Shown: piece by piece, positions 9,625 through 14,861 of the stretch
Position numbering within the stretch: position 1 is the stretch's first letter
How the letters are laid out: each line of letters opens with the position of its first letter
Assembly: GCA_964372865.1 (NCBI GenBank)
Contig: CAYJRW010000001.1
Span: forward strand, 1 to 44,077
Length of the DNA stretch: 44,077 nucleotides
Origin: an uncultured Candidatus Saccharibacteria bacterium
Lineage (GTDB): Bacteria > Patescibacteriota > Minisyncoccia > Minisyncoccales > 2-12-FULL-40-12
Direction of reading: 5' to 3'
The notes under the pieces: model-generated
Seen by the model: the letters and a program-made list of their open reading frames with translations, nothing else
What the model was told of the DNA's origin: nothing
Databases searched by the model: none
Program-made: the position numbers and the translations under genes

Positions 9625-9653
9625 ATTATATAAAAAAAACCGCCTTTGGTAAA
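9625..9653 (-). promoter_or_regulatory. Weak putative promoter for secA (TTTACC-N17-TATAAT), giving a near-leaderless transcript
   Basis: On the minus strand, TATAAT at 9630-9625 ends 11 nt before the secA ATG. The -35-like TTTACC (9653-9648) lies inside the upstream terminator hairpin. Confidence 0.25.
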
Positions 9654-9658
9654 GGCCG
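9632..9658 (-). terminator. Rho-independent terminator after the polyamine operon
   Basis: On the minus strand, hairpin GCCTTT-ACC-AAAGGC (9656-9642) is followed by GG and T8 (the plus-strand A-run 9632-9639). It lies 22 nt after the speB-like stop. Confidence 0.7.
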
Positions 9659-9680: not shown

Positions 9681-10538
9681 TTAAAAATTATAACTAATGA
9701 TTTTATAAATGATTTTGGCGGCTAAAAAGTCTGGCGCGTGAAAACCCGGAATGGGGTCTAGTTCCACAACATCAGCGCCGACAATTTTTCTTTTTTTGGA
9801 AATCTCTTTTATCAAATGTAGGGTTTCATACCAGCCAAGGCCACCAGGCTCAGGTGTTCCAGTTGAAGGCATAATTGAGGGGTCAAAAGCATCCAAATCA
9901 AAACTTATGTAAACGTTTTGTTTCAGCGCAGCAACTATTTTATTTACGGGCAATTCGGGTGCATAAAAAATTGTTTTTATTTTTTCTTTTTTAATATAAT
10001 CTTCTTCTTCTTCAGACATGCTCCTTATGCCAACTTGAACTACCGGTATTCCCTGCTCTCTTATTCTTCTAACAACGCAGCCGTGAGAATATTTTGTCCC
10101 TTCAAGTTCATTCCTTGAATCCAAATGCGCGTCAAAATAAAGAACTGAAAGGTTTTTAATCCTTTTTACAAAAGCTCTAACGGTTCCAATGGTTATTGAG
10201 TGTTCTCCGCCAATGGTTATAACAAATTTTTTGTCATGCAAAAGAGAGCTAACCGCTTTTTCTACTCTTTCCGTTGTTTCCTGAGGAGAGTTCTTTGAGG
10301 GCTCCAAGGGTTCCAAAGTAAAAATTCCTGTTTTAGCAACGTCTTTTTTCGTCTCAATGTCATAATCTTCCAAATAGCGGGAAGCCTCAATAAGGGCTTG
10401 AGGCCCTTCTTTCGTTCCTGATTTCCAAAAAGTAGTTGAACTGTAGGGCACTGGTAAAATAACTACTTTTGAGCTTTGGTAATTTTGATTTGGCAGTCCC
10501 AAAAAATTAAACGGCTCCGTTGTGGGATACTTGAACAT
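9681..10538 (-). CDS. speB: Agmatinase / ureohydrolase (arginase fold)
   Basis: 285 aa with the GGEHSIT, DAHLD and SFDLDAFDP metal-binding motifs. Its ATG overlaps the stop of the SET gene (TAATG). Confidence 0.88.
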   Translation of the reverse strand: MFKYPTTEPFNFLGLPNQNYQSSKVVILPVPYSSTTFWKSGTKEGPQALIEASRYLEDYDIETKKDVAKTGIFTLEPLEPSKNSPQETTERVEKAVSSLLHDKKFVITIGGEHSITIGTVRAFVKRIKNLSVLYFDAHLDSRNELEGTKYSHGCVVRRIREQGIPVVQVGIRSMSEEEEDYIKKEKIKTIFYAPELPVNKIVAALKQNVYISFDLDAFDPSIMPSTGTPEPGGLGWYETLHLIKEISKKRKIVGADVVELDPIPGFHAPDFLAAKIIYKIISYNF

Positions 10539-11071
10539 TATAATTTATTAATTTCTTCCTGAATATGCCAGGCAAAATAACCTTTGTATTTCTTTTGCAA
10601 CTCAAGATTCTTCCAGTCCTCTCCCGTAATAAACTTTCTGCAATTTTTTTCTTGACAGCGACATTTAAAGTAAATGCCGGGGTCATTGTCTGTCATGGCA
10701 TAGTCAAAAGTTAGTTCCTCATCCTTAAGAATATTGCGCATTGCCACAAACAAATTGCCTTTTACGCCAACATTGGGGCGACAACTGTGGTTCAAGTAAT
10801 CATCATCTTTGAGTGTTTTTTTGCTAAAGTGGGCTAAATAAAAACTTGGAGCTATTTTAAATAAATACTCTTTTAAGACCTTATATCGTTTTTTGGGAAG
10901 ATTTTTTGGGTTGCTTAAAATTTCTTTTTCTCCAACTATGTATCCTCCGGGAATGGCAATTATTTCACTTTTTTTAATGAGTTCTTTGGCAAACAATCCT
11001 TTTCTATGGATGGCAGAAGTCCCTGCTTTTACCTTTGGGTTAATATAGGGATTAATGTAAGAATGACCCAT
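10538..11071 (-). CDS. SET-domain methyltransferase with a post-SET Cys cluster
   Basis: 177 aa with RKGLFA, NHSCRPN, EELTFDY and CRCQEKNCR. Confidence 0.88.
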   Translation of the reverse strand: MGHSYINPYINPKVKAGTSAIHRKGLFAKELIKKSEIIAIPGGYIVGEKEILSNPKNLPKKRYKVLKEYLFKIAPSFYLAHFSKKTLKDDDYLNHSCRPNVGVKGNLFVAMRNILKDEELTFDYAMTDNDPGIYFKCRCQEKNCRKFITGEDWKNLELQKKYKGYFAWHIQEEINKL

Positions 11072-11080
11072 AAATCAAGT

Positions 11081-11947
11081 TTATTGCTTTTTGGTAATCT
11101 CTTTTAGAAAAGGCGGCAGGGTAAAAATTGCTTTAAACATTTCCGGGCTGAGGTATTTCAGCTTTCGCTCCAAATCTTTGTTCTTGAACTCCGTTTTCAG
11201 CGGGTTGAAGTTTTTGTTTGCGGAAGCTATCAGAAAACCCCAATAACCGCCAAAAAAACTAATGCAGGCGCGGTAAGAAAAAACTTTTGGGAAAACTTTT
11301 TTCAATATTTTTTTCAGGCGAAGGTGGCCCTGGTAACTGACTTCGCTGAAATTGTTGCTGTGCATTGCTAAAATGCCGTCTTTTTTAAGATTCTGGCGGA
11401 TAAGTTTGTAAAAATAGGTTTCCGGTTTCTTTATTTTAGAGCTGAGGTTGTAGTAGCCGGGGTCAGAGATGTCTGAGTAAATGACATCATACTTTTTTTG
11501 GCTTCTTAATAAAAAGTTTTCAGCGCTGTCTATAATTAAGTCAACTTTCGGGTGGTCAAAAAATCCTTGGTGCATCTCGGGAAAAAATTGCTTGAAAATT
11601 TTTACTGCTTCTCTGTCAATATCAATGGTCGTGATTCGCTTTACGTTTTTGTGCTTTAAAATTTCGCGAAGAGTCGCTCCCTCTCCCGCTCCCAAAACCA
11701 GGATTTGTAAATTTTTCTTCTTAGTCAGCAAAATCAAAGCGGGGTGAATCAGCGCCTCGTGGTAAATCCATTCTTCTTTAACGCAGCTCTGGGGAATTCC
11801 GTCAATAACCAAACTTTTACCAACCTCAAACAAATCGAAAATCTGGATATCCTGGAACTTTGTTTTTTTGTGAAATAAGAGTTTTTTTACCCGCCAATGC
11901 ACTTGAGAGTTGGGAACGTATGTATCAACATACCACTGCCGTTTCAT
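11081..11947 (-). CDS. Spermidine synthase-like aminopropyltransferase, divergent paralogue 2
   Basis: 288 aa with LGAGEGATLREILKH, TTIDID and DVIYSDISDP. It has a 4 nt overlap with the AdoMetDC gene. Confidence 0.8.
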   Translation of the reverse strand: MKRQWYVDTYVPNSQVHWRVKKLLFHKKTKFQDIQIFDLFEVGKSLVIDGIPQSCVKEEWIYHEALIHPALILLTKKKNLQILVLGAGEGATLREILKHKNVKRITTIDIDREAVKIFKQFFPEMHQGFFDHPKVDLIIDSAENFLLRSQKKYDVIYSDISDPGYYNLSSKIKKPETYFYKLIRQNLKKDGILAMHSNNFSEVSYQGHLRLKKILKKVFPKVFSYRACISFFGGYWGFLIASANKNFNPLKTEFKNKDLERKLKYLSPEMFKAIFTLPPFLKEITKKQ

Positions 11948-14757: not shown

Positions 14758-14861
14758 TTAGAAATTTAATTGTCTATTGTTCCTCTTTTTGAAAATTTTT
14801 TTTGAGTTATTTCATTATTTCATTTCAAGAAGGTATGTCAAGAGTTAAAAACGTTTTTTCA

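Follow-up and report, generated by a model that had tools for sequence, protein, structure and literature searches.

A clade of SET-domain proteins encoded in bacterial polyamine operons, with polyamine N-methylation as a candidate function

The SET domain is known from textbooks as a chromatin enzyme. In bacteria and archaea, small SET proteins methylate chromatin (nucleoid) proteins, and the secreted SET effectors of intracellular pathogens act on host histones. To our knowledge, SET activity on metabolites is almost unexplored outside BurB, and plant putrescine N-methyltransferase (PMT) is the only well-known enzyme for the SAM-dependent N-methylation of a polyamine-pathway diamine. BurB from Burkholderia thailandensis (PDB 9l4t/9l4v) is a SET-domain methionine S-methyltransferase that acts on free methionine, and it shows that a free metabolite can be enclosed by a SET pocket (PMC12542666). 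The statement of the first-pass annotation that bacterial SET proteins are mostly known as protein methylases is thus out of date. Our literature search returned no paper linking SET domains with polyamines or polyamine enzymes, and none on N-methylated polyamines made in bacteria. In the papers checked from the A. J. Michael laboratory, which treat gene clusters for polyamines in bacteria, no mention of SET was found. Polyamine N-methylation would be a reaction not yet described for the SET family.

Here we analysed a SET gene in a stretch of 44,077 nt (contig CAYJRW010000001.1, hereafter the window) from an uncultured Candidatus Saccharibacteria bacterium, whose genome assembly comprises 587 kb and is 92% complete. 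The gene belongs to an operon of six tightly packed minus-strand genes in the order speE1, decarboxylase, AdoMetDC, speE2, SET and agmatinase (Table 1). Matches to TIGR01230, TIGR03330, the Orn/Lys/Arg decarboxylase families and, for two genes, Spermine_synth bear out the polyamine neighbours named at first pass. The best PDB match of SpeE1 was Thermus SpeE (3anx/1uir). SpeE2 scored under every NCBIfam aminopropyltransferase equivalog cut-off, and its best PDB match was the Thermus triamine/agmatine aminopropyltransferase (1uir/3anx, 2.9e-47). Since an agmatinase is present in the operon, the 462-aa decarboxylase is probably an arginine decarboxylase that supplies agmatine. The SET open reading frame has an ATG start and encodes intact SET and post-SET domains. 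As first described, it begins 9 nt after speE2 (gap 11072-11080), while positions 10536-10540 read CATTA on the forward strand, which is TAATG in coding direction, so that the SET stop and the agmatinase start share 1 nt. The SET gene is translationally coupled between speE2 and agmatinase. The promoter-like and terminator-like bounds, which are pattern matches only, would fit a single transcription unit.

Table 1. Features of the polyamine operon and its putative bounds, with positions in the window.
Feature	Position	Strand	Evidence and remarks
Promoter-like site (TTGACA, 16-nt spacer, TG, AATAAT; 11/12 matches)	14814..14841	-	5' of first operon gene speE1; consensus match only
speE1, polyamine aminopropyltransferase, 313 aa	13816..14757	-	Pfam Spermine_synth 2.6e-52; NCBIfam NF002010 270.9 bits (cut-off 260)
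PLP-dependent Orn/Lys/Arg decarboxylase, 462 aa	12420..13808	-	Pfam OKR_DC_1 1.2e-71 and OKR_DC_1_C
S-adenosylmethionine decarboxylase (AdoMetDC), SpeD/SpeH class, 126 aa	11944..12324	-	TIGR03330 126.6 bits (cut-off 75.65)
speE2, divergent second aminopropyltransferase, 288 aa, with GAGEGATLREILKH; immediately 5' of SET	11081..11947	-	Pfam Spermine_synth 9e-35
SET and post-SET SAM-dependent methyltransferase, 177 aa; family-specific C-terminal extension, residues 149-177	10538..11071	-	
Agmatinase-family ureohydrolase, 285 aa; start codon overlaps SET stop	9681..10538	-	TIGR01230 234.8 bits (cut-off 174.3)
Terminator-like hairpin followed by T-run, 3' of agmatinase gene	9642..9656	-	Consensus match only

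The complete SET signature claimed by the first-pass annotation was recovered from the translation, with NHSCRPN at residues 94-100, ELTFDY at 119-124 and CRCQEKNCR at 137-145, and the protein matched Pfam SET PF00856 (E 7.9e-14, 52.4 bits versus a cut-off of 22.4). All catalytic elements are present. Across 43 homologues, N94 and H95 of the NHSC motif (N94 H95 S96 C97) and D123 and Tyr124 of ELTFDY (E119-Y124) are invariant. Among the cysteines, C139 and C144 never vary and C97 and C137 hardly do; the three post-SET residues (C137, C139 and C144, CxCxxxxC) together with the Cys of NHSC make up a predicted post-SET zinc site. In the GxG SAM-binding loop the window protein reads H-R-K-G, with the first glycine replaced. 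This position is R or K in most members of the clade described below, versus G in 90% of the remaining family. A conserved 29-residue extension (ITGxDWKxxxLQxKYKGYFxxYIQxKI) follows the post-SET motif in the homologues. An AlphaFold2 model computed from the 43-sequence alignment adopts a SET fold (mean pLDDT 88.4, pTM 0.83), and its confidence drops only at residues 51-70, the SET-I insert. The top Foldseek match to this model was the MLL1 SET domain (2w5z, E 1.9e-9), and the matches to MLL1, ASH1L, NSD and SETD2 all had a probability of 1.00. HMMER and Foldseek both ranked MLL1-type SET and post-SET domains closest, with MLL1 reaching 2e-26 by the family profile.

With MLL1/KMT2A-type enzymes (PDB 2w5z, 7u5v) the window protein shares NHSC, ELxF/YDY with the catalytic Tyr and the CxCxxxxC post-SET zinc motif. 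Unlike MLL1, it is a stand-alone bacterial protein without WRAD partners or chromatin, its GxG loop is altered and its gene lies in a metabolic operon. In addition, the MLL1 chain ends where the conserved C-terminal extension begins. BurB is likewise a small stand-alone bacterial SET protein with an equivalent active-site Tyr and a gene in a biosynthetic cluster. However, the alignment with BurB covers the C-terminal half only and not the full length, the BurB gene has a bur/DMSP context where the window gene has polyamine neighbours, and BurB methylates sulfur rather than the nitrogen proposed here. Plant PMT (mentioned in PMC10407285), which catalyses the SAM-dependent N-methylation of a polyamine-pathway diamine, resembles the proposed enzyme in function but not by homology: this eukaryotic enzyme is a class I Rossmann methyltransferase that evolved from spermidine synthase and supplies alkaloid synthesis. 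Chromatin-protein SETs and secreted SET effectors are of similar size and have the same domain, whereas the window gene belongs to a polyamine operon in a free-living or episymbiotic groundwater lineage. Reading its residues directly, we saw no long hydrophobic stretch at the N-terminus of the window protein.

Whether the SET/polyamine neighbourhood is kept in related genomes was then analysed by tracing close homologues from a protein search to their contigs; an alignment-based metagenome scan gave 80 further loci. Six-frame ORFs of the loci were screened against the polyamine enzymes of the window and those recovered from the loci themselves, and neighbours were compared with Pfam. Clade membership was defined by tree placement together with one of two contexts, namely a polyamine gene no more than 2.5 kb away or a lysine-dehydrogenase-like gene immediately 5' of SET. 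In a maximum-likelihood tree of 88 SET-domain homologues, the window protein fell into a clade of 15 rows (14 distinct sequences; UFBoot 94 and SH-aLRT 95.7 in the careful run, SH-aLRT 93 for the same clade in a quick run), within which it groups with the proteins of loci L007 and L004 (SH-aLRT 100). All 15 rows have a polyamine operon context, and the SET/polyamine adjacency thus exceeds chance; an adjacency unique to this contig is ruled out. The polyamine label requires 5 changes on the tree compared to a mean of 17.5 after shuffling, a value equalled in none of the 500 shuffles. Two sub-clusters bear NCBI names from Candidatus Omnitrophota MAGs, and the clade therefore spans at least two phyla, Patescibacteria and Omnitrophota.

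Within this clade, identity to the window protein is only 45-72% and the gene order varies. L007 (P0002, 72% identity) has the order AdoMetDC, speE2, SET, agmatinase, and L004 (P0003, 65%) has speE2-like, SET, speE1, decarboxylase, secA. In L004 the order is thus changed compared to the window, and SET still lies immediately 3' of a speE2-type gene. In G049 (51%, from the same order as the window genome), SET overlaps by 4 nt the end of a gene for a 385-aa protein with a BpsA_C (branched-chain polyamine synthase) domain, a BpsA-like aminopropyltransferase. The loci at 45-52% identity read AdoMetDC, speE, X, SET or AdoMetDC, speE, SET. In two of them (L026 and L029) speE is directly upstream of SET, and in seven others (L021-L025, L027 and L037) SET follows X, itself located after AdoMetDC and speE. 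X is a protein of 335-382 aa with weak Sacchrp_dh_C matches, and the PDB entry closest to it is the lysine dehydrogenase PH1688 of Pyrococcus (3abi, E 3.3e-20). The gene directly upstream of SET is therefore of four types in the clade (speE2, speE, BpsA-like and the lysine-dehydrogenase-like X), and SET usually comes directly after a chain-extending enzyme and often as the last gene of the cassette. Every member is linked to an aminopropyltransferase, and AdoMetDC was seen wherever the contig was long enough. Since the neighbourhood is kept across a two-phylum clade through several operon rearrangements, these data support a functional link of SET to polyamine metabolism. The same conservation makes a host-histone effector unlikely.

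The clade also differs from the rest of the family in its residues. Its members share a 4-residue insertion in SET-I (window residues 62-65), the acidic residues E50, D90 and D91, of which D90 and D91 immediately precede NHSC, the aromatic residues Y69, F77, Y122 and F135, and T127. At position 122 the window protein has F, versus Y in 93% of the clade. Position 69 aligns with a Tyr of MLL1, Y3858 of the lysine channel, and position 122 with MLL1 Y3942, the Phe/Tyr switch that sets the number of methyl groups, as assigned by residue counting. By alignment, the clade-specific residues and the insertion would fall in segments that build the substrate groove and lysine channel of MLL1-type enzymes. 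A site for binding polyamines would call for such gains of acidic and aromatic residues along the groove. We considered that the changes at D91 and in the GxG loop might mean that decarboxylated SAM is the cofactor, but advance no such claim.

Independent polyamine links are seen in four lineages beyond the clade (L014, L100, L010 and L068). In L014 and L100, SET lies beside a deoxyhypusine-synthase homologue that passes NF002699, the equivalog model for 1,9-bis(guanidino)-5-aza-nonane synthase of the SpeY type, with 530 and 575 bits (cut-off 500). Enzymes of this type couple agmatine in homospermidine synthesis (PMC10981699, PMC13625781), in a reaction that requires NAD+ and is SAM-independent (PMC10407285). 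A hypusine-like protein modification, as the deoxyhypusine-synthase-like neighbours might suggest, was rejected, since these proteins pass the SpeY-type equivalog cut-off. In L010, a gene for a saccharopine-dehydrogenase-family protein starts 4 nt 3' of SET, and a second gene of this family is convergent; the first protein matches carboxynorspermidine synthase weakly, with a score far under the threshold. In L068, speE overlaps SET and AdoMetDC is located downstream. The SET neighbours thus come from several enzyme families (speE-type and BpsA-like aminopropyltransferases, SpeY, saccharopine-dehydrogenase-family and lysine-dehydrogenase-like enzymes), all of which produce polyamines or act on them. 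Since the SpeY-type enzyme is SAM-independent and AdoMetDC was not detected in the L010 or L014 loci, the element common to the neighbouring enzyme families is the polyamine and not the cofactor SAM or dcSAM.

The approximately 70 remaining loci have heterogeneous neighbours, among them amidase and thymidylate synthase. An orthologous histidine kinase is encoded downstream of SET in L014, L052, L053 and L100, SET is located between rpsG and fusA in the Saccharibacteria loci L003 and L058, and one family member is flanked by a resolvase and an IS240 transposase. Most members at 35-44% identity do not adjoin polyamine genes, and given their heterogeneous neighbours we rejected a polyamine link of the whole small-SET family. 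A single-protein search of the genome contigs gave 3 distant loci only, none of them polyamine-linked. Among Patescibacteria, 17 of 401 genomes encode a family member, the window genome included. None of the other 16 has a member in the polyamine clade and only one has a Spermine_synth match; the ancestral family substrate was therefore probably not a product of aminopropyl transfer. These genome counts also led us to reject the idea that presence of the family tracks Spermine_synth in Patescibacteria. In the order of the window genome, 3 of 61 genomes have the SET gene. AdoMetDC occurs in 23 of the 61, only 2 of which encode the clade SET, which is thus an accessory addition that is not needed for polyamine synthesis. 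Wider-family contexts and genome counts thus confine the polyamine link to the clade and a small number of other lineages, and do not extend it to the family as a whole.

The amine that SET enzymes methylate terminates a four-carbon chain, and exactly such a group is found in agmatine, in putrescine and on the aminobutyl side of spermidine. Because the neighbouring enzymes have polyamines in common, because polyamine ends resemble lysine and because BurB provides a precedent, the function that we prefer is N-methylation, with SAM as methyl donor, of a primary amine on a polyamine or on an agmatine-derived precursor; we give it slightly less than an even chance. Of the corresponding proposal in the first-pass annotation, the link to polyamines has held up by synteny, while the N-methylation itself is consistent with our findings and is an inference. 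The case for this function is built on the gene neighbourhood. Against it count the nearest relatives in sequence and structure, which are true protein-lysine methyltransferases (MLL1), the match to BurB over the C-terminal half only, the wider family, which is mostly not polyamine-linked and in Patescibacteria rarely co-occurs with Spermine_synth, the presence of SET in only 2 of the 23 relatives with AdoMetDC, and the lack of papers on bacterially made N-methylated polyamines among our search results.

A less likely alternative, though still a substantial one, is that the protein is an ordinary protein-lysine methyltransferase that is co-expressed with polyamine genes. Its target could be a nucleoid or ribosomal protein, a translation factor or a polyamine-pathway enzyme, and co-expression would arise since both serve the same process, for example the charge balance of nucleic acids and ribosomes. 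MLL1-type enzymes match best over the whole domain in both sequence and fold, the rpsG/fusA and conserved histidine kinase contexts outside the clade suggest protein substrates for the wider family, and the family is present in genomes that lack aminopropyltransferases. However, such an enzyme leaves unexplained why the clade adjoins four polyamine enzyme families through rearrangements and across phyla. One protein target common to these non-homologous neighbours seems implausible, and the clade-specific changes are located in the putative substrate-groove segments.

A BurB-like S-methyltransferase would instead convert methionine or another thioether to a sulfonium compound, such as S-methylmethionine, that feeds AdoMetDC and the aminopropyltransferase, for example as an alternative aminopropyl donor. 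BurB is of similar size (172 aa), has the equivalent Tyr124 and matches the family profile at 2.8e-13, and the constant presence of an aminopropyltransferase, with AdoMetDC wherever the contig suffices, would suit such a role. Nevertheless we hold it to be very unlikely: BurB aligns at profile positions 81-141 only, compared to 11-138 for MLL1, the window AdoMetDC passes the equivalog cut-off for a true AdoMetDC, the neighbours are polyamine genes with no bur-cluster genes among them, and the SpeY-type and saccharopine-dehydrogenase-family neighbours without AdoMetDC do not fit. Similarly improbable in our view is that SET entered a mobile polyamine cassette once and has since been inherited or transferred along with it, with no functional link. 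The patchy occurrence (3/61 genomes of the order, 17/401 of the phylum), the family member between resolvase and transposase and the cross-phylum spread, which indicates horizontal transfer, all speak for such hitch-hiking. Yet at 45-72% identity the gene order and the upstream enzyme family have changed repeatedly while SET stayed in the operon, its coding region often overlaps or nearly touches its neighbours, and conservation extends to the reading frame and to every catalytic residue. A small remainder of the probability, about a tenth, is left to no named reading.

If the SET protein N-methylates a polyamine-pathway amine, the aminobutyl or aminopropyl arm of the substrate would enter the lysine side-chain channel, and its terminal primary amine would receive one or more methyl groups from SAM. 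With SET placed between speE2 and agmatinase, a route of aminopropylation, methylation and deguanidination suggests itself. In this speculative scheme for the window, agmatine would be aminopropylated to N1-aminopropylagmatine, SET would methylate the only free primary amine of this compound, and the ureohydrolase would strip the guanidino cap to leave a spermidine with methylation confined to one particular end. The Thermus triamine/agmatine enzyme is the best match of both SpeE1 and SpeE2, and agmatine is the compound that most spermidine synthases of bacteria aminopropylate (PMC11107197), with which the scheme is compatible. A tetraamine formed by both aminopropyltransferases is an equally possible substrate of SET.

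For the clade as a whole we propose, more tentatively still, that it may comprise the first SET-superfamily enzyme to N-methylate free polyamines, working with an aminopropyltransferase and, in Omnitrophota, also with the lysine-dehydrogenase-like partner. Ultra-small bacteria would then make N-methyl polyamines with capped ends and possibly a permanent charge. Diatoms also have N-methylated polyamines, to which these would be the bacterial equivalent, and for the diatom compounds we know of no methylating enzyme. Should the clade turn out to act on a protein instead, it would suggest a hitherto unrecognized switch by lysine methylation that is coupled to the supply of polyamines, in minimally regulated organisms. 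If it is indeed dedicated to polyamines, bacterial polyamine metabolism would gain N-methylation as a new reaction, new metabolites would be expected in Patescibacteria and Omnitrophota, and the clade would show how a lysine-directed active site can be retargeted to the lysine-like ends of polyamines.

Among the metagenome loci carrying homologues of the window SET methyltransferase, operons of the Omnitrophota type have the order AdoMetDC, speE, X, SET (L021-L025, L027 and L037), X being an uncharacterised protein of 335-382 aa encoded immediately 5' of SET. X had no NCBIfam match and matched Sacchrp_dh_C weakly; its closest PDB relative is Pyrococcus PH1688 (3abi, 3.3e-20). X is a second lysine-epsilon-amine-type enzyme fold taken into polyamine operons.

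In G049, a relative from the window's order, the gene of a BpsA_C (branched-chain polyamine synthase) domain protein shares its last 4 nt with the beginning of SET, and an MFS-like ORF directly follows SET with zero gap. Upstream of the window SET, the divergent aminopropyltransferase speE2 has GAGEGATLREILKH, resembling GGGEGATLREVLKH in 1uir, a triamine/agmatine aminopropyltransferase from Thermus. speE2 scored under every NCBIfam aminopropyltransferase cut-off. Many Spermine_synth matches in the Patescibacteria survey came from weakly scoring ORFs of ~500 aa, a size by which they may represent membrane-fused MFS/spermidine-synthase proteins and not SpeE in its soluble form.

Coordinates of SET-associated features
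Feature	Locus	Lineage
BpsA_C-domain protein, 385 aa	L019:1956-3113 (G049:C9)	window's order
speE2	window:11081-11947
X (examples)	L025:4847-5995; L023:4992-5999
Histidine kinase, ~550-570 aa, downstream of SET	L014:6540-8255; also L052, L053, L100
Stretch with SET family member P0012 between resolvase and IS240-type transposase genes	L012:5167-7206; also L013
Stretch with SET family member between rpsG (S7) and fusA (EF-G), str operon	L003:7455-10651; also L058	Saccharibacteria

Outside the polyamine-operon clade, the histidine kinases of one SET branch are orthologous (E <= 1e-142, locus versus locus); their gene overlaps SET in L014 and L052. The gene of a SpeY-type enzyme adjoins as well at two of these loci, L014 and L100. 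For P0012 (23 member sequences), the flanking genes constitute a mobile context. In Saccharibacteria, the placement within the str operon is a hint that this SET branch has a protein substrate connected with translation.
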